This document shows, piece by piece, positions 3,828 to 21,158 of a stretch of DNA of 32,000 nucleotides. The position numbers were made by a program, and so were the translations under genes. A model generated the notes under the pieces. The model was given only the letters and a program-made list of their open reading frames with translations. It was not told the origin of the DNA and made no database searches. The stretch comes from Candidatus Nitrospira inopinata. GTDB taxonomy: Bacteria > Nitrospirota > Nitrospiria > Nitrospirales > Nitrospiraceae. Within the stretch, counting starts at the first letter, position 1. Every line of letters begins with the position of its first letter. The stretch is taken from positions 1,830,001-1,862,000 of the forward strand of contig NZ_LN885086.1 of the NCBI RefSeq assembly GCF_001458695.1. The letters run 5' to 3'.

Positions 3828-5303
3828 ATGCGTCGCATCTTCTTCTTGGTCTTCTCCGGGCTGTTGGTTGCCGGATCACTGGGCTGTGTTTCCCCTTCGC
3901 GCGAAGGGCTTCCGCCGAGCAGCCCCTTTCTCGCTTCGGTCGTGTTGGCGGAGGATCTCTTGCCTCAAGGCATTGCGGTCGGCGACGTCGGTTCCAGCGG
4001 CGCCATCATATGGGTGAGAACGGACGGGCCGGCGTTGGTGCGGATCGAATGGGCGACGCCGGCGCAATGGGAGACTGTTTCGAAAATGGGATCGGCGCGA
4101 GCCCCCGTCTCCAGAACCGACCGGCTGTCCACGACGAGCGAATCGGATTACACCCTCTCCGTTCCGATCCAAGGCTTGGCTCCGGCCACCCGGTACCGGT
4201 ACCACGTGTGGATTGAACGAAGGGGATCGACGGGACACGAGCAGCCGACACTGGCGGCGAAGGGTGAATTCACGACCCTGCCGGATGCAACTACCTCCGC
4301 TCCCATCACCTTCGTTTGGAGCGCGGATCTGGGAGGCCAGGGCCACTGCCGCCAAGGGGAGGCTGGTTATCCGATGTTCGATGTGATGCGGCAGAAAGAC
4401 CCCGACTTCTTCCTCTTTTTAGGCGATACGATTTACGCCGACAATGCGTGTCCCGCTCCGCCCAACGAACCGGGGGCAACCGTTGTCGCGGCGACACTTG
4501 ACGAATACCGGGCCCGCCATCGCTATCAACGGGGCGCCGCCGCGCTCCGCCGATTTTTGGAAACCGTGCCGGTCTATGTGACGTGGGATGACCATGAGGT
4601 GCGCAATAATTTTGCCGGGCCGTTCGATGAGCGGATGCCCGAAGGACGACAGGCATTACGCGAGTATTGGCCCATTGGGTCACCGCCCGACGATCCGCAT
4701 CGGCTTTACCGGTCCGTCAGATACGGCGCAGATTTGGAACTGTTTCTTCTCGACACCAGACAGTACCGGAGCCGCAACGCCGAGCCGGATGGTCCGACCA
4801 AGACCATGTTGGGATCGGCTCAGTTGCAATGGCTGCTCGATGGGATCTCGCAATCGACCGCGACATGGAAGGTGATCGCGACGTCCGTGCCCCTGTCGGT
4901 GCCGAAAGGGGGAGGAGAAACGGTGCCCGGCAACGACGGCTGGGCCGGCGGTCCCGATGGAACCGGCTTTGAGCGCGAGCGGCAAGTGATCGTCGAGACT
5001 ATCCTCGATAAACGACTGAAGAACGTCGTGTTTCTCGCCGGCGACATCCATTGGGCCCAGGCCAACGCCTACGATCCGGATCGGGACGGTGTCGTCGATT
5101 TCCATGAATTCGTGGCCGGTCCGCTCTCGGCCAATCCGGGACGAATCACCGAGGCGGCGGGATCGCTCCATCCGACGCGCCTGTTCAATGAATCGGGCTA
5201 TCACAATTTTGGACTGGTTCGGGTGACCAAGACCCTGTTCGAAGCGGCCATCATCGATCAAACCGGCGTGACACGATTCGTCCATCGCGTGGCTGCTCGG
5301 TAG
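3828..5303 (+). CDS. PhoD-like alkaline phosphatase / metallophosphatase, lipoprotein
   Basis: Signal peptide with lipobox LVAGSLGC. PhoD-type motifs are present: DFFLFLGDTIYAD, WDDHEVRNNF, FLAGDIHW. Confidence 0.85.
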   Translation: MRRIFFLVFSGLLVAGSLGCVSPSREGLPPSSPFLASVVLAEDLLPQGIAVGDVGSSGAIIWVRTDGPALVRIEWATPAQWETVSKMGSARAPVSRTDRLSTTSESDYTLSVPIQGLAPATRYRYHVWIERRGSTGHEQPTLAAKGEFTTLPDATTSAPITFVWSADLGGQGHCRQGEAGYPMFDVMRQKDPDFFLFLGDTIYADNACPAPPNEPGATVVAATLDEYRARHRYQRGAAALRRFLETVPVYVTWDDHEVRNNFAGPFDERMPEGRQALREYWPIGSPPDDPHRLYRSVRYGADLELFLLDTRQYRSRNAEPDGPTKTMLGSAQLQWLLDGISQSTATWKVIATSVPLSVPKGGGETVPGNDGWAGGPDGTGFERERQVIVETILDKRLKNVVFLAGDIHWAQANAYDPDRDGVVDFHEFVAGPLSANPGRITEAAGSLHPTRLFNESGYHNFGLVRVTKTLFEAAIIDQTGVTRFVHRVAAR

Positions 5304-7902: not shown

Positions 7903-8973
7903 TCAGCGAGTGGGATCGGGTTTGTCCCCGCGATTGACGAGCAAGTTGGGCGGCGGGCCGATCGGCTCGAAGTTTTTTAGGAGCGGGACATCGTCTTTGC
8001 GCACCCACAGGACGTCGTGATTGTACGAACCCAGCGGCCCAGACCCGCCGGAGAACATCGCGCCGTCCGGGGTGAAGGTCCAGCACATGTCTTCCCCGGC
8101 CGTATTGATCGTGTCGCCGAGATTCAACGGCTCTTGCCATTCGCCTCGGGGATTCTGATAGGAGATCCACATGTCGTGCCCGCCCCGTGACCCCATGTCG
8201 GGGCGAGTGCTGGTGAAGATGAGGACCTTCCCGTCTTTCGACAGACCCGTCCAATGGAGGTGGTCGCGATAGGGGGAATTGATGCGCGGCCCCAGACTCT
8301 CCGGTTTCTGCCACACGCCGTTTTTCTTCTCGACCTTCCAGATATCGCTGTCCTGCGTGACGCCCGGCTGTTGATAGCTGAAATAAATGAGGCTGTCGGA
8401 GACGATGATCGGGCAATGTTCCTCGCCCGTGGGCGTATTGATGTGAGGGAGCTCCGGCACGTCGTTCCAGTTTCTGGCCGGTTGCCAGACCCCGTTGACT
8501 TTCTGCACGACGTAGAGGTCGCCGGTCGAAAGATTGCCCGGCTCGTATCTGGTGAAGTAAATGACGTTGCCGTCATCCGAGAGACTCGGTTCCAGCTCCC
8601 ACGCGGAGGTATTGATATTCGGCCCCACGGTCGGATCGATGCCCGGTCCCAAGTGAATCGGCGGTTGCCAGACCCCGTCCACGGAGTGGGACATCCAGAT
8701 GTCAAAATTATAAGGAACTCCCGGCGACGGGATACTTCCCTCACGGGCCGAGACGAAGATTGCCGTCTTCCCATCGGCGCTATAGGTGATTTCGATCTCG
8801 GCGTCCGGTGAGTTGATCGGCTCGCCCATACTCTTCGAGAGCGCGGAACTCGCATGCGTGTGCCCGCCGTGCGGCGTCTCCATGCCGGACATCGCGTGGG
8901 GAGCGGCGGGAGTCAGTACGAGGGTGAGCACCGCCACGATGCCGTACATTGAGCCAACGGTCTTTCTGTCCAT
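7903..8973 (-). CDS. Secreted TolB-like (PD40/WD40-like) beta-propeller protein
   Basis: Repeated motifs: P(I/E)NLG..INS...E..P.LS.DG..LYF, and DIW(M/K)...(V/K)NGVWQ.P. It has a signal-like N-terminus and a His-rich stretch, PHGGHTH. I chose ATG 8973 (GGAGGAGG just upstream) over the track's TTG 8988. Confidence 0.7.
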   Translation of the reverse strand: MDRKTVGSMYGIVAVLTLVLTPAAPHAMSGMETPHGGHTHASSALSKSMGEPINSPDAEIEITYSADGKTAIFVSAREGSIPSPGVPYNFDIWMSHSVDGVWQPPIHLGPGIDPTVGPNINTSAWELEPSLSDDGNVIYFTRYEPGNLSTGDLYVVQKVNGVWQPARNWNDVPELPHINTPTGEEHCPIIVSDSLIYFSYQQPGVTQDSDIWKVEKKNGVWQKPESLGPRINSPYRDHLHWTGLSKDGKVLIFTSTRPDMGSRGGHDMWISYQNPRGEWQEPLNLGDTINTAGEDMCWTFTPDGAMFSGGSGPLGSYNHDVLWVRKDDVPLLKNFEPIGPPPNLLVNRGDKPDPTR

Positions 8974-9025
8974 ACCTCCTCCATTCAAATCATGGTGCGA
9001 TGATTCATCCGGCCGCGCGCCAAGC

Positions 9026-9445
9026 TCAGATTTCTCCCCTGTTCACTTGCCGGACTCGTTCTGCCGGGATGCTGAGGGCGGCCAAGAGGTAGTCCTTCAA
9101 TTCGCTGCTGTAGGGCTGGGCGGCCAGGGCCCGCTGCATGCACAAGAGCCAGGCGTCTCGTTCTTCGTAGCCGATCGGAAAGCGCTTGTGCGCGCCGGGG
9201 ATACTGATCGGTCCGTAGTGTTGTTGAAATAGCTTCGGTCCTCCCAGCCAGCCGCAGAGGAAATAGGTCAGTTTTTTGCGCGACTCGGTGAGATCGGCGG
9301 GGTGCATGGCTCTGATGACCTGTGCTTCCGGCAGCCTCTCCATGTTGGCGTAAAATTCATCCACCAACTTGGTGATGCCTTCGAGTCCCCCCGCCGCCTG
9401 GTAGGGGGTAAGCGCGGCGTCGTTCTCTTGGTCGTGGCTGGTCAT
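9026..9445 (-). CDS. glbO: Group II truncated haemoglobin (trHbO-like)
   Basis: 139 aa. Typical 2-on-2 globin group II motifs are present: FY..M, LFLCGWLGGP..Y....G...(I/L)...H..F.I...E.D.WL.CM..AL. Confidence 0.8.
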   Translation of the reverse strand: MTSHDQENDAALTPYQAAGGLEGITKLVDEFYANMERLPEAQVIRAMHPADLTESRKKLTYFLCGWLGGPKLFQQHYGPISIPGAHKRFPIGYEERDAWLLCMQRALAAQPYSSELKDYLLAALSIPAERVRQVNRGEI

Positions 9446-9515: not shown

Positions 9516-9751
9516 TTACTCATCGTGGGATCCGATCCATACCCAAATGAAATCCGACCCATCCTCAACGGCTAACGCCCGGTGATGAGGTCCGACCCTC
9601 GCAGACCACGGTTTGCCGATTTTTTGAAGTGGAGCAAAGGGTATGCGGGATTCTCTTGCAAGGGGTCAAAGTTGTGTCGAGCCATGTCCTGGACCGATTC
9701 CGGAAGATCCGCAAAGAAAGTCCAGAACCGAGGCGTTGTGCGGTGCCTCAC
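9516..9751 (-). pseudogene. RelE/ParE-superfamily-like toxin, disrupted by a 1-nt frameshift
   Basis: GTG 9751 overlaps the antitoxin stop (GTGA). Frame 1 reads VRHRTTPRFWTFFADLPESVQDMARHNFDPLQENPAYPLLHFKK. After the A6 run (T6 at 9620-9625 on the + strand) the family-typical continuation IGKPWSARVGPHHRALAVEDGSDFIWVWIGSHDE* sits in the -1 frame. The span is 236 nt, which is 237 minus 1. Confidence 0.7.
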
Positions 9752-9948
9752 AGGTCCTTGCGCATCCCTTTGGCTTTTGCATCGAGCGCTTCACGCACCA
9801 AGCAATCCAGCTTTCCAGCTATGGAGTCGGCCTCGATTTCCTTGCTCCAACGCCCCCAATCCTTTTCTGACAGCCATCGGCCAAGTTCGGCGAATTGTTC
9901 CGGAGAGAGTTGCTCGATTTCCGTTTCGAGTTCATCTATCGTTGCCAC
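9748..9948 (-). CDS. Small antitoxin-like protein (addiction-module component look-alike)
   Basis: 66 aa from GTG 9948, with AGGGGAGGG 6 nt upstream. The sequence VATIDELETEIEQLSPEQFAELGRWL...WSKEIEADSIAGKLDCLVREALDAKAKG resembles small antitoxins paired with RelE/ParE toxins. It has a 4-nt overlap with the downstream toxin. Confidence 0.65.
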   Translation of the reverse strand: MATIDELETEIEQLSPEQFAELGRWLSEKDWGRWSKEIEADSIAGKLDCLVREALDAKAKGMRKDL

Positions 9949-10376
9949 GGATTTCCCTCCCCTCACTGATCTGGACCGCCAATTCCTCGGCTTGCGACCG
10001 GGAGAGGATCATTCATCGTAGGCCTTCAACGGTATTCAACAGTAGGCCCCGCATCGCAACCGCTGCGCCATATCACTCAGGACTTTGGGAGGGAACCGCT
10101 CGTTATGAGATGAAGCTGACGAGTGGTCCGCAGGATGGAGGATAGAGGCGGAGCTCGTTGTTTTTGCCGTCGACTGTCAGGGGATTCACAGGGCGGCAGA
10201 TTGTCGAGTCGGGAAACAGAAAGGGCACAGTCATATTTGCTCCAGATAGTGATTCACTTCATGTAGCACAAAGCCAAACGTCCCCTTATTCTCTCCCTAC
10301 CCGAGTATCGATTACGCCATGCATCCATGGGCTCATCATGTTCTCACCGTGTGCTCCCGACCTCTCGAATTGTGTA

Positions 10377-10436
10377 GGCTAACGCTAAAGCTCAGCCGCG
10401 CCGCGTAGCGGCGTCGGCTGGAGCGCCTTGTTGGGC
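10377..10436 (-). repeat. attC recombination site (60 bp), top strand on minus
   Basis: The minus strand reads GCCCAAC-AAGGC-GCTCCAGCCGACGCCGC-TAC-GCGGCGCGGCTGAGC-TTTAGC-GTTAGCC. It has RYYYAAC and GTTRRRY-type ends and imperfect inner arms, with two extra bases (T and G on the + = bottom strand). The stop codon of the 591-aa ORF lies 10 nt upstream. Confidence 0.85.
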
Positions 10437-10446
10437 GACAATCCCG

Positions 10447-12222
10447 TCATGACATCCGCTTTTCTATGCTCTCAAGCTCGTCGGCGACTTGTGCGCACAC
10501 ATGATGGAAGTGATTGGCGAACGTTTCATGCTCCATCAAAGCATTCTGCGCCAACTGCTGGGCCTCGCTGCCGCCGGCATGCCCCTTGGCTTTTGAGCGC
10601 AAGAGCTGGACTGTTCGCAAGCCGGCCAGCCTCCCAACCCCCGTGCTGGACTTGCTCAGGAGCTTTTCGAGCAACGCTATTGTCTTGTCCTCCTTGGCGT
10701 ATGAAACTTGCCCTTCATCTAGTCGAGTTCGGATCACTTTTGTTTCAAAGCCCTCGATAACCAGCTTTGCAAGATCCATGAATACCTCAGCCCATTCATC
10801 GCGACTCTCCGTTAGAGGCGTATTCACACGCTTAAGCAGCATCTCATCCCGAAGTGTCCACCATGCAACCTTGTCGTCGTGCCAGCGCTGAACGATAGAT
10901 AAGACCTTCTGCAGCGGCTGTACGAAGTTCACAAACTCGCCCTCGAAATCATTGATGAAGGCGCGTTTGGAGATACTGGCTTTCGGTGGCTCGTTGTAGG
11001 AGAGCCAGTGCAGCTGCTCCTTGTACGGAAGGCGGCGCAGGTAGCAGATGTAAGCGTGTACCTGACCCGCTTCGTTAACGTCGATTGCTTCAAGGTGCCA
11101 CGCTGCCCGGCATGAGACATCACGATCGCTCACTGTGTACTTGTCACGATCTGCCTTGTACTTCAGTAGAACTTCCGGCCCGAAGAACGCGGGCGATAGT
11201 TCGAAAGGCAGTGTGTTTTCCTTGGCCTGAAAATAGTCCGTCGTGGCCGCCGGGTCAGTGGAGATTCCCGTCACGCGCTGATTGCGCCAATCGTAGGCGA
11301 TGAACTCGACGTACTGCTTGTTCTTCCTTCCGAACCATCGGTCCGTGATACCCGTGAAGATAGCTTCCGGAGAGCGACGAGGGCGGATGATCTGTACACC
11401 CCGCGTGTAGGCCGCATAGCTAGGCATGACTTGCCGGCGGTAGAAGAAATCGGGCGATTCGATGATTTCCTGCGTCGGCCCCTCTGACCAGCCGGAGAAT
11501 CCGGAGCGCCGCAGCAAAGTGAAATCAAACATCCTTACGAGCGAAGCGTTGGACGCCGCAAGGTACTCCTCCAGCGGCGCCCACTTAAAGGAGACGAGTG
11601 CCATATTGCTGGCCTTGTCCTCGCGGCTGGTCACGGAAACAACGGGCTCAAGATCACCAAGTTCATTGAAGCGGCAGTAGGCTCGCATTTCGGGACGCCA
11701 GTGGATGTCGGTCAGATGCGCGTACTCCTGATGGAGCTCGTGGTAGGTGCGGCCCGGCCCAGTCCAGCCTTCGAACGTTCGGACGAAGATCAACTGCATG
11801 GCATTTTTCAGCGTGTTGGTGCCTGTTCCGCTCAGGCCTCGTTCGACCCACACGCCCTCGCACCCACCCCCGGTCACATAGCTGGCGATTGACGTGAAAG
11901 GCTTGAAGCTCCATTGCATCAGGTCTTGCTGGTCAACAGGTGCGAGCCGGTCATTCGGAACGGCGACCGAGTGGATCAACGTGTATTCACCCGACGCGTG
12001 AATGACCAGTTCATCGGCGCGGGCGTTCTTGCGCAGGAAATCGAGATGCGCCTCAGCCTCTATCCACTCGGAAAAGGGTTTGGAATCCGCCGGTACTTCG
12101 TCGAGTCTAGTGATTGCCTCAATCAGCTTCTTGTGTTCGTAATTGTGCAACCATTCCCTCCTGTTACTCGGCCTCAATGTGCCTGGCGTCGGCGCTCCGC
12201 TTGAGCGAGGGGTTAGGGTCAC
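10447..12222 (-). CDS. Large hypothetical protein (567-591 aa), cassette B gene 2, with a C-terminal Rx5H (HEPN-like?) helical region
   Basis: Long uninterrupted ORF with balanced amino-acid composition, unlike the Arg/Pro-rich shadow ORFs. The track start GTG 12222 has no SD, whereas TTG 12150 has AGGAGG 6 nt upstream. I saw no Walker A, TM segment or known catalytic signature. The C-terminus contains LRTVQLLRSKAKGHAGG. Confidence 0.8.
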   Translation of the reverse strand: MTLTPRSSGAPTPGTLRPSNRREWLHNYEHKKLIEAITRLDEVPADSKPFSEWIEAEAHLDFLRKNARADELVIHASGEYTLIHSVAVPNDRLAPVDQQDLMQWSFKPFTSIASYVTGGGCEGVWVERGLSGTGTNTLKNAMQLIFVRTFEGWTGPGRTYHELHQEYAHLTDIHWRPEMRAYCRFNELGDLEPVVSVTSREDKASNMALVSFKWAPLEEYLAASNASLVRMFDFTLLRRSGFSGWSEGPTQEIIESPDFFYRRQVMPSYAAYTRGVQIIRPRRSPEAIFTGITDRWFGRKNKQYVEFIAYDWRNQRVTGISTDPAATTDYFQAKENTLPFELSPAFFGPEVLLKYKADRDKYTVSDRDVSCRAAWHLEAIDVNEAGQVHAYICYLRRLPYKEQLHWLSYNEPPKASISKRAFINDFEGEFVNFVQPLQKVLSIVQRWHDDKVAWWTLRDEMLLKRVNTPLTESRDEWAEVFMDLAKLVIEGFETKVIRTRLDEGQVSYAKEDKTIALLEKLLSKSSTGVGRLAGLRTVQLLRSKAKGHAGGSEAQQLAQNALMEHETFANHFHHVCAQVADELESIEKRMS

Positions 12223-12234
12223 CGTGTGCTCGTG

Positions 12235-12873
12235 CTATTGCGCTCGGAACAGGTGCTTTAGATAAGGACGGAGTTGGGGAAACTCCGTTCGAGCCTCTTC
12301 GAAGTAGTCTTCGTATTGCGGCATTGCATCAACCAAACGCGGCTTAAGCGCAAGCTGTGCGTCAAGTTGCTGCCGAAGATGTGCCTCTGTCATCGCGCCC
12401 ATCGACCAGTATCTCGAAGGACGAAGGAACGGCTCGCGGTTATCCCAAACACATCGAGCCAGATCCGTAAACATGAATCTCCCATCCTCGGCTGGTGGTT
12501 CGTCGTCGGGTAGCAAGATGGCCATGCGAACTGGCGCGTGGCCATCCGAGCGCGAGAACTCGCGCTCATCATCATTACTATAGTCATAGCGTCCATGAAT
12601 CAGCAAGCCGCTCGACGGACAGCGAACTAAGGCCTCATGCTCAATCTCACCGGCCATTCCTCCAAGAAATGGAAGATATAACCTTGGGACAGTTAGTCGG
12701 TATCTTGCAATCGGGTCACCGCGCTTTATCCAGGCGTAGTTCGTTCTGTCTCGGAGCCCAGTGAGCGCGCCTGAGTGACTGAACGTACCCCCAAAGACGG
12801 CTGGTACCAGGAGCATCTTCGTGCCGAGGGTGACCCCGGCTGGAACTTCGCCTCTGCGGTATTGCTCAGTCAT
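12235..12873 (-). CDS. Hypothetical protein (212 aa), cassette B gene 1
   Basis: ATG 12873 has AAGGAA 5 nt upstream. The stop is 12 nt (or 84 nt) ahead of the next ORF's start. No domain recognised. Confidence 0.75.
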   Translation of the reverse strand: MTEQYRRGEVPAGVTLGTKMLLVPAVFGGTFSHSGALTGLRDRTNYAWIKRGDPIARYRLTVPRLYLPFLGGMAGEIEHEALVRCPSSGLLIHGRYDYSNDDEREFSRSDGHAPVRMAILLPDDEPPAEDGRFMFTDLARCVWDNREPFLRPSRYWSMGAMTEAHLRQQLDAQLALKPRLVDAMPQYEDYFEEARTEFPQLRPYLKHLFRAQ

Positions 12874-12932
12874 GTCGGTTCCTTGGGGGAGGGTCGGGAA
12901 GCGGGTTGCTACGCGAGCCGTTAGTTCGTGAC

Positions 12933-12996
12933 GCCTAACGCTCCGGTTCAGCGGCGGGCCGCGCAGCGGACCGTCCGCTGCAACCGGTTGTTAGGC
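12933..12996 (-). repeat. attC recombination site (64 bp), top strand on minus
   Basis: The + strand reads GCCTAAC-GCTCC-GGTTCAGCGG...CCGCTGCAACC-GGTT-GTTAGGC. The 7-nt ends are perfect inverted repeats. The inner arms pair with one extra base in the right arm of the + strand. The 98-aa ORF stop lies 9 nt away. Confidence 0.85.
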
Positions 12997-13005
12997 TCCC
13001 TTCGT

Positions 13006-13302
13006 TCACGTCGTGTGCTTCTGCACCGTGAACGTGCGGTCGATGAATATGTTGACCTCCGCATCGATCGACCCGCCAACGCCTGACCAGAAGTGGATTC
13101 TGAGCCGATCTCCTTCGGCGGTCAGGTCCAAGGCTGTGTTATCAAGACCGAGATCGAGCATGCTGTTCAGCTCTGCCACGATCGCCCACAACCGTCGGTG
13201 GAGGAGGTCCCTCACTTCAGAACCAATCTGGTGCTCCAGAGGTCCGAGTTGAGCGTTCAGGATGGAGACACGCTGCAAGAGGTCGTCGAATCGACTTGTC
13301 AC
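13006..13302 (-). CDS. Hypothetical protein (98 aa), cassette A gene 2
   Basis: GTG 13302 overlaps the upstream stop codon (GTGA, 13299-13302), suggesting translational coupling. No domain recognised. Confidence 0.65.
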   Translation of the reverse strand: MTSRFDDLLQRVSILNAQLGPLEHQIGSEVRDLLHRRLWAIVAELNSMLDLGLDNTALDLTAEGDRLRIHFWSGVGGSIDAEVNIFIDRTFTVQKHTT

Positions 13303-13964
13303 GACGGCGGCGACTCCCGTGTGACCGTCTCTGCGGATGTGATCTTGCCGGCAGCCACCAAGCGTACCAACGGCCGCTGTTCAAGCACGACAGCGGAGAC
13401 AAGCTGTCGCGTTTCCTTCTTCGTGTAGCCGAGTTCCTGCGCCAGACCGACGAACTGCTTGGCAATCTCGACCTGCAGCTGCTGGTTCTCAAGTTCGCGG
13501 CGTTCATTCTCTAACGAACGCTGGCGCCTTGTGGACCAGTGCTCGATGAGCCGAACCAAGAGATCCTTCAGGTGACCGACGATCTCGCCGATCCCGACGA
13601 GGTCCTTGATGCCGGGGGAACCGTAAAGCACGCGCTGCACGACCAAGCGCTCGTCTGGCTCCAGCAGTTCGGAGGCGACTGCGAAGGGGACCTCGCCGCG
13701 GCCCAGCAGCGGGGCACGCCCGGAGCGGAGGACCGACGGGGGAGCCAGTCGTGCCCAGGTGCGGAGAGACCTGAGCGATCGGGGAAACGGGGGGAAAGGC
13801 GCGTCCATGTAGAAGTCGCGCAACTCACGAAGCTCCTCGATCTCCAAGGCGAGCGCGAAACGCAGCGCGTAGAGGCGATCGAGTGCGTTGAAGGACGTCG
13901 CGAACTCGCCCGCCTCCCAAGCGCCATCGATGCCAACTCGGAGTACCTGCCGTTCCTCGTTCAT
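13299..13964 (-). CDS. Hypothetical coiled-coil protein (221 aa), cassette A gene 1
   Basis: ATG 13964 is only 22 nt from the attC core, with AAGAGG upstream. There is a central heptad-like segment, RRQRSLENERRELENQQLQVEIAKQF. No domain recognised. Confidence 0.7.
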   Translation of the reverse strand: MNEERQVLRVGIDGAWEAGEFATSFNALDRLYALRFALALEIEELRELRDFYMDAPFPPFPRSLRSLRTWARLAPPSVLRSGRAPLLGRGEVPFAVASELLEPDERLVVQRVLYGSPGIKDLVGIGEIVGHLKDLLVRLIEHWSTRRQRSLENERRELENQQLQVEIAKQFVGLAQELGYTKKETRQLVSAVVLEQRPLVRLVAAGKITSAETVTRESPPS

Positions 13965-13986
13965 ACCGTTGATGCCTCTTTTTGGA

Positions 13987-14056
13987 GCCTAACGTTCGGG
14001 TTCAGCCGCATTGCGGAGCACAGCGGAACAACGTCGGCTGCAACCCGTTGTTAGCC
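13987..14056 (-). repeat. attC recombination site (70 bp), top strand on minus
   Basis: The + strand reads GCCTAAC-GTTCG-GGTTCAGCCG...CGGCTGCAACC-CGTT-GTTAGCC. It has the same architecture and the same side for the extra base as the attC at 12933-12996. Confidence 0.85.
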
Positions 14057-14138
14057 AGCCGGCGAAGACGGTATAGGCACTAACGTGCACGCACATATCG
14101 GCAGACCAGCGCACCCGTGCTTGCTTTAGCAGTCGATA

Positions 14139-14668
14139 TCAATTCGAACGGTATTGCTTTCCCGTTTGTGGTAAAGATCGTCTACCCCCGCCAAGAATCA
14201 TTGGCCCGATCGTCAGCAATAACTCATCGACAAGATCCGCAGCGAGCAACGACCGAACCATCATCGCGCTGCCGTACACATAGATGTAGCCCCCCGGCTG
14301 CGCCCGCAGGTCGGACACTTTTTGCAAGAAGTCATCACCACGGATGATCGTCGTAGGATGCCATGTGATGTCCTTTTCGCTGAGCGTGTTGGACACCACG
14401 TACTTCTGCACCTTGTTGATCCAGTCTGAGAACGGGTCTCCCGAGCGGCTTGGCCAAGCGGCGGCGGACGTTTGATAGGTGGGCGTCCATGCAAGAGCGC
14501 GTCACTCTGCTTGGCGAGGTCGTCAAACGTGCCGCCGATCACTTCTGGGTCAAAGTACTTCAAAAACCATCCGCCATGGGCAAAGTCGCCGTCCGTGTCT
14601 TCCTTCGCCCCACCTGGAGCCTGGACAACACCGTCCAAGCTGATGAATTCAGTGACTAGCGTCTTCAT
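14139..14668 (-). pseudogene. Dihydrofolate-reductase-like (RibD C-terminal domain family) gene with a 1-nt frameshift
   Basis: The first frame reads MKTLVTEFISLDGVVQAPGG...SDALLHGR. The family-typical continuation TYQTSAAAWPSRSGDPFSDWINKVQKYVVSNTL...YVYGSAMMVRSLLAADLVDELLLTIGPMILGGG is in another frame. The switch is at about 14479-14484 (a C run). The span is 530 nt, which is 531 minus 1. Confidence 0.75.
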
Positions 14669-14704
14669 GGGGTCTCTTGTTTATACGACTGTGGGATCTG
14701 TGCT

Positions 14705-14793
14705 GGCTAACTATTGAGTAGATTGGTCAGCCTATCCCCGCCAACCGGTTTCTTGGTTGCGGCCGATCCTAATAAGCGTTGCCCATACTTAGC
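14705..14793 (-). repeat. Degenerate attC-like imperfect palindrome
   Basis: GGCTAACTAT (14705-14714) pairs with ATACTTAGC (14785-14793). The inner arms ATTGGTCAGCC / GGCCGATCCTAAT pair with bulges. The spacers are non-canonical and one core reads CTTAGC rather than GTTAGC. Confidence 0.3.
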
Positions 14794-14861
14794 AAGACTT
14801 TTCTCACCCCTCTGGAGCCTGACAAACACCGCATGCTAGGTCAGCCTATCCCGGCGTGCCG

Positions 14862-15086
14862 TCACGGCTCTCCGCCCCGCCTGTCAGGGGGTGGATGGTC
14901 TATGTCCGAGGCGGTCAGCCGGGCTGTGGTTATGATGACGTATTGATGTCGGCGGGCAAATTCAAAAATGGCGCGATCGTCGAGCGCTCTGCCAGGGTGA
15001 TCGTGGATGTGGATGGCATCGTGTCCGCGTTCGCGCAGCCAACCAGCGAGGCCTGGTGGGAGGTTGGCGTCCACGAGAAATGTCAT
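14862..15086 (-). pseudogene. DUF5615-type (PIN-like, Mut7-C-related) toxin gene, probably 3'-truncated
   Basis: MTFLVDANLPPGLAGWLRERGHDAIHI...DDRAIFEFARRHQYVIIT matches the DUF5615 N-terminal pattern. The usual C-terminal third is missing (74 aa). The gene abuts a partial attC-arm copy. Confidence 0.55.
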
Positions 15087-15286
15087 GTGGCTTGTGCCGG
15101 CATGATCGTATGGTCCAAGTATGCAGCGGCGTAGGTGATCGCGGCTCGATCGTGATGGCGCAGATATTTCCATCCTTGTCGATATCGAGTTGAGTGTCTG
15201 CATCCAAATCTCTTGTCCCTGACACCGGTGCCGTTTTGAATTCGATGTCCAGTGGGTCGGTGTCGTTGAAAATGTTTGATTGTCAT
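15083..15286 (-). pseudogene. DUF2283-type antitoxin gene with internal frame disruption
   Basis: The ATG frame gives MTIKHF. The conserved core FNDTDPLDIEFKTAPVSGTRDLDADTQLDIDKDGNICAITIE is in a different frame, reached after a T4 run. The stop (ATGA overlap with the DUF5615 start) is back in the first frame. Confidence 0.6.
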
Positions 15287-15468
15287 GGCTTGAACCCTCG
15301 GTCGAAAAAGACATTGTGGACTGTTTCACGATCGGACAGTAATGCCACCAGCACGTATCTGTTTCCCATTTCTTTTATCGGGGCCCAGCGGCGGATGCGT
15401 CCGTCTTTCTGAACCGTTTCTCCACCGGGCTGACGGTTAGGAATGCCGGCCGGCGTGGTATGCCAACA
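15283..15468 (-). pseudogene. DUF4258-like toxin gene remnant, 5'-truncated
   Basis: An open frame without a start codon reads ...GETVQKDGRIRRWAPIKEMGNRYVLVALLSDRETVHNVFFDRGFKP*. Its stop overlaps the DUF2283 ATG (ATGA). The pattern matches the DUF4258 C-terminal half as I recall it. Confidence 0.5.
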
Positions 15469-15470
15469 TC

Positions 15471-15509
15471 ATCTGAAAAATGCATCTGAAAAATACGTCT
15501 GAAAAATAC
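15471..15509. repeat. Three tandem 13-nt repeats (ATCTGAAAAATGC / ATCTGAAAAATAC / GTCTGAAAAATAC)
   Basis: Read directly. The repeats abut the truncation point of the DUF4258-like remnant. Confidence 0.9.
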
Positions 15510-20823: not shown

Positions 20824-20924
20824 TCAAAAAACCGATCCGTTCGCCGGTCGCCGTGCTTCCAAATAAAAAAGCCGCACCCCCCGGCCTGGAGGTACGGCTG
20901 AATCCCCACAACGTCCGCTGTCTG

Positions 20925-21012
20925 TCCGGCTTCCCTACGCTGGTATTACCCAGGTCAGGTTGTGAGGGTCGTCCGATCGAGCGGACTCTCAGCCGTGAGG
21001 CTCCCCTAGCTA
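20925..21012 (-). promoter_or_regulatory. TPP (THI-box) riboswitch in the thiC leader
   Basis: The minus strand reads AGGGGAGCCTCACGGCTGAGAGTCCGCTCGATCGGACGACCCTCACAACCTGACCTGGGTAATACCAGCGTAGGGAAG. It contains the conserved CUGAGA, ACCUGA and CCAGCGUAGGGAA elements. Confidence 0.9.
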
Positions 21013-21158
21013 TCGAAGCCGCATCATAGGTCCCGTCGAAGGGCGAAGTCAATCGGCCATTAGCCCTATGGCTTTATGGCACACCATCACGTCACGGAGG
21101 CGTCTTCCGGCTCATGTGAGGAGCAAGGTCTCTTTCGCCGACGCTCTTCGTTGAATGT

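Follow-up and report, generated by a model that had tools for sequence, protein, structure and literature searches.

Within the Candidatus Nitrospira inopinata genome (3.295 Mb), a 32-kb stretch of DNA, hereafter called the window (proteins CUQ66879 to CUQ66890), contains a short array of integron gene cassettes between a gcvT/ygfZ-like gene on the right and glbO on the left. The array consists of the cassettes A, B and C, each with its own attC recombination site. Towards gcvT, it is followed by an attI-like region, a short stub of the integron integrase gene intI and the pseudogenes of a toxin-antitoxin (TA) pair (Table 1). Related genomes and further contigs used for comparison carry working labels (L007, L129, L143 and so on). 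As set out below, the array is very probably the remnant of a sedentary chromosomal integron that was resident between these two genes and whose intI has decayed.

Table 1. Features of the cassette array and its surroundings (positions in the window)
Feature	Position	Strand	Description
attC1	10377-10436	+ (bottom strand)	recombination site of cassette A; extrahelical T and G
attC2	12933-12996	+ (bottom strand)	recombination site of cassette B; extrahelical T and C
attC3	13987-14056	+ (bottom strand)	recombination site of cassette C; extrahelical T and C
Cassette A	10383-12938	-	2556 bp; open reading frames (ORFs) of 212 aa (12235-12873) and 567 aa (10447-12150)
Cassette B	12939-13992	-	1054 bp; ORFs of 221 aa (13299-13964) and 98 aa (13006-13302), 4-nt overlap
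Cassette C	13993-14710	-	718 bp; RibD_C / dihydrofolate reductase (DHFR)-like gene (14139-14668) with a single frameshift
attI core	14705-14711	-	GTTAGCC on the top strand; junction of attI and first cassette
attI-like region	14712-14883	-	172 nt; two direct repeats GCSGGGATAGGCTGACC at 14839-14855 and 14725-14741
intI stub	14884-14928	-	last 14 codons and stop, on the cassette strand; ortholog of the longer L143 and L144 fossils
DUF433/DUF5615 (PIN-like) TA pseudogenes	14929-15290	-	Pfam DUF5615/PIN_10
Distal flank	9518-10376	-	antitoxin-like ORF (9748-9966) and frameshifted ParE-like toxin gene (9518-9751)
Thiamine pyrophosphate (TPP) riboswitch	20915-21017	-	Rfam RF00059, 66.5 bits; upstream of a thiC-like ORF that is likewise on the minus strand

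The three sites had been described in the initial annotation as palindromes with attC architecture, and fold predictions as well as two covariance models place them at the same positions. Both models were built here since Rfam, applied to the whole window at gathering threshold, matched no attC family and reported the TPP riboswitch as its sole match. Model R1 was trained on five 60-bp class 1 attC sites only (aadA1, catB8, aadB, aac(6')-IIa and aadA6), which were taken from two class 1 arrays (L007 and L008) and annotated with the canonical structure. MAFFT alignments mixing short and long class 1 sites were structurally misaligned in the centre, and no model was built from them. Searching the entire window on both strands with filters off, R1 matched the plus strand with 68.1 bits at attC1 (E 5.7e-17), 42.4 bits at attC2 (E 1.3e-9) and 33.9 bits at attC3 (E 3.7e-7), and the borders of the matches are exactly those listed in Table 1. 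For comparison, a true class 1 attC outside the training set scored 29 bits. The reverse strand of the three sites stayed at or below 16 bits, and elsewhere in the window no match was significant (best unrelated match E 0.22). A covariance-model check, as proposed with the initial annotation, was positive at all three positions with this model. A second model, R2, was trained on 150 environmental attC sites that R1 had found; it serves sensitivity and is not an independent test, as about two-thirds of these sites came via a pattern derived from the window. With R2 the scores rose to 75.2, 65.9 and 54.9 bits for attC1, attC2 and attC3, again with no other significant match in the window, and the model recovered nine of nine attC sites in L007 and L008, among them the long sites of oxa-1 and qacG2. 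R1 also matched weakly at 14705-14732, and both R1 and R2 did so at 9570-9617. These matches had E-values between 3 and 6.5 and were rejected as additional attC sites.

Folding of the plus strand as single-stranded DNA gave imperfect hairpins with z-scores of -3.5 (attC1), -6.6 (attC2) and -1.7 (attC3). The unpaired extra bases, two per site and 6 bp apart, always lie in the 3' arm of the plus strand, as had been noticed initially. Folds and model alignments together contain core boxes, L boxes, the unpaired spacer and the extrahelical bases. The initial assignment of 7-nt cores of the type RYYYAAC/GTTRRRY stands as an approximation: attC1 (GGCTAAC/GTTGGGC) and attC3 (GTTAGCC) deviate from it by one base each, and the GGCTAAC of catB8 deviates likewise. 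The C at the second extrahelical position of attC2 and attC3 is normal, since this position is C in 60 of the 150 environmental sites (G in 76). A pattern shared by the three sites, CTAACG-N7-TCAGC...GCTG-N7-TTGTT, occurs at these places only in the 32 kb and gave no match in 100 shuffles. Covariation in the stem was analysed for eight related attC sites, using an alignment that was fitted to the model and thereby favours the structure: 94.6% of the cells were paired, compared with 22-45% in slid controls, seven pairs had changed on both sides, and none of 500 shuffles reached the covariation score. By blastn, attC1 aligned to 3294 plasmid records, in which it matched the attC sites behind class 1 cassettes such as those of aac(6')-IIa and catB8. 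When two of these arrays are oriented as the plus strand of the window, their cassette genes fall on the minus strand with the match directly on the 3' side of the gene, while intI1 is found at the right on the plus strand.

These results identify the three palindromes as genuine integron attC sites. Their start-to-start spacing is 2556 and 1054 bp. The strand-specific model matches confirm that the plus strand is the recombining bottom strand, and hence that the minus strand is the one from which the cassettes are read, both of which had been deduced before from the extra bases. All ORFs between the sites are indeed on the minus strand, with stop codons 10, 9 and 82 nt before an attC. The lower GC content described for the sequence between the sites was found in cassettes A (0.564) and C (0.557), but not in cassette B (0.614), the flanks having values of 0.596-0.603.

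None of the four intact cassette proteins had a match in Pfam, NCBIfam or PADLOC, and a PDB sequence search with the 567-aa protein of cassette A was equally without match. The longest ORF of its gene has 591 aa, the called gene starting later. More than 1500 proteins from several phyla make up the family of the 567-aa protein, which has no Pfam domain; the 120 best-scoring members are 72-88% identical. Members occur in phyla as distant as those of Truepera, Acidobacteria and Spirochaetales, and the conservation is unusually strong for an uncharacterised gene that moves horizontally. In Truepera radiovictrix (L145, 7001-8650), an 87% identical homologue occupies the first cassette position next to a truncated intI. 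Its stop codon is followed after 10 nt by an attC and then by three more cassettes; this array has four attC sites in total. The gene pair of cassette B was found with at least 90% identity in three other arrays bounded by attC sites (L135, L137 and L138). In L137 the pair makes up the first cassette, located behind the 3' end of intI and attI, and the start of the cassette (GTTAGGCTCC...) is identical in L137 and the window. Cassettes A, through its 567-aa gene, and B are thus mobile units that recur in other integrons. In L135 (1885-5557), the pair of 221 and 98 aa (13006-13964 in the window, minus strand) shares the array with RAMP-TIR and TIR-domain genes. These neighbours hint at a possible defence or toxin-antitoxin role of the cassette B pair; that cassettes A and B both carry two-gene modules of such a kind is a reasonable guess, but no more than that. 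Cassette C differs from the other two in that its RibD_C gene is inactivated by one frameshift. Pfam RibD_C matches both fragments, and the protein of 177 aa obtained after repair of the frame scores 72.5 bits across the full domain. The annotation of the source genome labels this gene as 'fragment'.

No tyrosine recombinase gene had been seen in the window, and our searches agree: tblastn with IntI1 gave a best E of 0.43, a hidden Markov model (HMM) for the C-terminal part of IntI, trained on nine integrases, reached no better than E 3, and Pfam found no recombinase among the remaining ORFs of the window. A stub of 14 intI codons is nevertheless present and was recognized by comparison with the gcvT neighbourhoods of related Nitrospira, in which the GcvT-like protein has 73% to >90% identity to that of the window. 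In five of these relatives the HMM detected the end of an integrase (L143, E 8.6e-15; L144, 1.3e-13; L132, 1.9e-7; L129, 1.8e-5; L131, 2e-3), always at the same locus and on the cassette strand, the weaker match in L131 being to a different piece. The fossils of L143 and L144 comprise about 35-40 codons of the integrase C-terminus and are located just upstream of the array. The one in L143 is 60% identical to residues 296-332 of IntI1 and includes an HVLNR...SP.D tail, which is typical of integron integrases. Upstream of the fossil, L143, L144, L129 and L132 have colinear DNA, and these four genomes therefore share one old 5' truncation of intI. Compared with L143, the window has undergone a further deletion of about 310 bp, which removed most of the fossil and truncated the DUF433/DUF5615 pseudogenes. 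All sampled relatives have lost the stretch in which the IntI-specific insertion would lie, and none of them has the intact intI of a complete integron.

Between the stub and the first cassette lies the attI-like region. It is conserved in L143 and L144, and L129 and L132 share its upstream part, proximal to the integrase. Its direct repeats GCSGGGATAGGCTGACC are candidate binding sites of the integrase. The orientation of the fossil is that of the cassettes, corresponding to an 'inverted' layout. The array begins at the attI core. Its upstream side does not run straight into the gcvT-like gene, as had been described initially; the stub and the attI-like region are still present there. A similarity of 14807-14831 to the RibD_C N-terminus (repeat D10), considered as a duplicated remnant, was short and not colinear and was taken as chance. 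Scanning metagenomes for the DNA pattern of attI and fossil gave no match in a collection that evidently lacks such contigs.

Comparison of closely related strains revealed that cassettes are exchanged at this attI. L143 is 98.4% identical to the window over cassette A and the distal flank and 95.3% identical on the gcvT side. Here, the same attI is joined straight to cassette A, which is the lone cassette of this strain (...CTACTCAATA|GTTAGGC|GTCACGAAC..., junction G|TTAGGC). With attI leading directly into cassette A, cassettes C and B are absent from L143 exactly at the core sites. In L144, the same attI is followed by another cassette, X, with an N6/N4 methyltransferase gene and a 239-aa ORF, and then by an attC of its own (43 bits). 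One and the same attI is joined at its core site, with G|TT as the point of insertion, to cassette C in the window, A in L143 and X in L144. As a peculiarity of L144, 10 nt of attI are duplicated in tandem just before the core (4935-4960, AATCTACTCA twice), and the core itself reads GCTAGGC instead of GTTAGGC. The shared truncation of intI predates the divergence from L132 (84% GcvT identity). The differences in cassettes lie between genomes of 95-98% identity. Since the truncation is older than these differences, the turnover of cassettes at core sites postdates the loss of the local integrase.

The segment between gcvT and glbO is also variable on a larger scale, in line with the synteny comparison suggested at the outset. 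In the close relative L141 (GCA_024331095.1, 10093-10304), the gap between the two genes is only 212 bp, with no TA remnants, intI fossil, attI or cassettes. In L142 (GCA_024331025.1, 10859-18459), whose gcvT flank is about 95% identical DNA, a 7.6-kb defence island replaces attI and the cassettes. It encodes RibD_C, HsdS, a ThsB-like TIR protein, AbiEi/AbiEii and HsdR and contains one weak attC-like match (18 bits). With a defence island at this place, the gap between gcvT and glbO is a general hotspot and not solely an integron platform. To the left of the array, the gene pair of glbO and a PD40 gene (7903-9445, minus strand) is absent from the more distant Nitrospira L131, L132 and L134, so that the variable region is larger than the array.

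Decayed TA genes on both sides had been regarded as marks of a former array extending from about 9.5 to 15.5 kb. For the right side this view is not supported. The DUF433/DUF5615 remnant lies beyond the intI stub and attI and is found beside gcvT in relatives without attC, as an intact pair in L130 and as remnants in L132 and L134; it is accordingly no decayed cassette, but an ancestral gcvT neighbour that lies outside the array. At the left end, the TA remnant (9518-9966) may be a decayed terminal cassette or merely flank, and no attC was detected beyond it with R1 or R2. The repaired ParE-like toxin matches Pfam ParE_like with an E of 5.4e-5 and 23.5 bits, which is just below the cut-off of 24.4 bits. 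Past attC1, 26 nt are present only in the window and L143; they are followed by sequence common to strains with differing cassettes (L143, L144, L129 and L132). In L144 (6989-7322), the attC of that strain is followed by a gene for an Unstab_antitox antitoxin and by the initial codons of a toxin. This toxin is cut off where the flank in common with the window begins (about 10348 in the window), which suggests an old deletion within a TA cassette as the starting point of the distal flank.

The arrangement is best explained by the decay of a resident integron. On the minus strand, the original layout would have been gcvT, DUF433-DUF5615, intI, attI and then the cassettes, with intI presumably transcribed in the cassette direction. 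The loss of the first ~250 codons of the integrase gene would predate the diversification of this Nitrospira clade, and in N. inopinata the further deletion of ~310 bp would have left the 14 codons of the stub. What remains now is attI with the cassettes C, B and A, each ending in attC. In the predicted hairpin of the plus strand, R box, unpaired spacer, L box and the two extrahelical bases 6 bp apart would form the folded bottom strand that an integron integrase would recombine at the G|TT of the core sites. The array would be static without a local integrase, unless the enzyme is supplied in trans. Site-specific gain and loss of cassettes would nonetheless have continued after the truncation of the local intI, and we infer that these exchanges were catalysed in trans.

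It is hardly conceivable that the palindromes are generic repetitive extragenic palindromes (REP) or transcription terminators with no link to integrons. They share with such elements that they are GC-rich imperfect hairpins just past stop codons, yet they score 34-68 bits in a strand-specific manner against a model made from class 1 attC alone, and attC1 is about 75-78% identical to attC sites of the aadA/catB8 type. In addition, no T-run follows the hairpins and none of five reported terminator-like sites overlaps them. The 32 kb contain three copies, all within the array, a published table gives six attC sites for the whole genome (PMC9024848), and homologous sites are found elsewhere in arrays beside IntI genes. 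More serious, although still quite improbable, is the view that no integron was ever resident here and that an integrase from elsewhere put a circle of several cassettes at a secondary GTT site within a variable intergenic region. A de novo cluster of attC sites of this origin would agree with the lack of an integrase gene in the window and with a hotspot that also holds non-integron islands (L142, L134). It leaves unexplained why the C-terminal fossil of a recombinase lies directly upstream, on the cassette strand, in five related genomes, and why a conserved attI-like region ends in a core site at which L143 and L144 join other cassettes.

The origin of the strain differences is a separate question, and here the readings are closer. 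That the platform is recombinationally active in nature through an integrase supplied in trans is our tentative proposal, for which we would claim somewhat less than an even chance. Only a little less plausible is an exchange of cassettes by homologous recombination across the flanks on the attI side and the glbO side, with unsampled Nitrospira strains carrying an active integron as donors. The higher identity of the left part including cassette A (98.4%, compared with 95.3% on the gcvT side, window versus L143) suggests a recent allelic exchange, and L141 and L142 are examples of deletion or replacement of the whole region. However, all six sampled relatives that keep part of the locus (L129, L131, L132, L142, L143 and L144) have a truncated intI only, four of them sharing one truncation, and the donors would therefore need an intact intI not seen so far. 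Moreover, the junctions are located exactly at the G|TT of the core sites, which exchange between the flanks alone does not explain.

Several observations weigh against a decayed resident integron that is still served in trans. The fossil comprises the C-terminal ~35-40 residues only and is without the IntI-specific insertion; its assignment to IntI, rather than to another Xer-like recombinase, consequently rests on the HVLNR...SP.D tail, the position and the synteny. Between 14700 and 14930 no sigma-70-like promoter was found, the only match in the region being at 15544-15516, with a consensus that may not fit Nitrospira. The absence of an integrase elsewhere in the genome is taken from a published IntegronFinder table without coordinates, and recombination with unsampled strains of intact intI could account for the strain differences in place of an integrase in trans. 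In L129 and L132, which have no cassettes, the junctions are inside attI and not at core sites, with short microhomologies, and hence not all variation at the locus is site-specific. These junctions look like ordinary deletion, a gain of the cassettes by N. inopinata being the other possible reading; the left breakpoints differ between the two genomes and the right ones lie within ~15 nt of each other.

An element of this kind is already known, and we do not describe a new one. The survey with IntegronFinder 2.0 found as integron elements in the phylum only two clusters of attC sites lacking an integron-integrase (CALINs), both in Ca. N. inopinata (PMC9024848). Table S3 of that study lists them with 3 attC / 5 proteins and 3 attC / 4 proteins, no complete integron and no In0, and it gives no coordinates (PMC9024848). 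The present array is probably one of the two. New are its origin from a degraded, inverted resident integron, the position of attI and the turnover at core sites after integrase loss. CALINs are common and are thought to be degraded integrons that can possibly still be mobilised in trans. To our knowledge, direct evidence from nature for such decay or mobilisation is scarce. The locus offers a compact and well-sampled case in the environmentally important comammox Nitrospira, in which stub, attI and cassettes can all still be read. Between near-identical strains it is whole cassettes that differ, at the core sites, and two of the cassettes recur elsewhere, one of them in Deinococcota with 87% protein identity. 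Its value is that of a worked example and of a pointer to two widespread, uncharacterised gene modules borne on cassettes. If the activity in trans is real, it would be evidence from natural populations that a CALIN or pseudo-integron of a nitrifier remains recombinationally active.

The definition of CALIN, which is also that of IntegronFinder 2.0 (PMC9024848), reportedly goes back to Cury and colleagues in 2016, and the label given in the initial annotation suits the array insofar as three co-oriented attC sites lie less than 4 kb apart (at least two within 4 kb), the ORFs are on one strand and end just before attC, and no integrase gene was found within 4 kb in the window. Unlike in an orphan cluster, the 14-codon integrase stub and the attI-like region are still in place here and sister strains have longer stubs; since stub and attI persist, the array is a degraded resident integron and not an orphan. 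Integrons with intI oriented as the cassettes are said to have been described as 'inverted' by Coleman in 2004 and by Boucher in 2007, for example in Treponema denticola. As in such inverted chromosomal integrons, which are intact in L048 and L079 and which L137 resembles in layout, the 3' end of intI faces attI and the cassettes are on the same strand. The difference is that here the integrase is destroyed and three cassettes only are left, one of them a pseudogene. Among the sites themselves, attC1 resembles the 60-bp class 1 attC of the aadA/catB8 type not only in identity but in having the same R and L boxes, the same extrahelical T and G and the same 6-bp spacing. In contrast to the mobile class 1 arrays, the array of N. 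inopinata is chromosomal and not borne on a transposon, has neither resistance genes nor intI1, and its cassettes encode uncharacterised two-gene modules.

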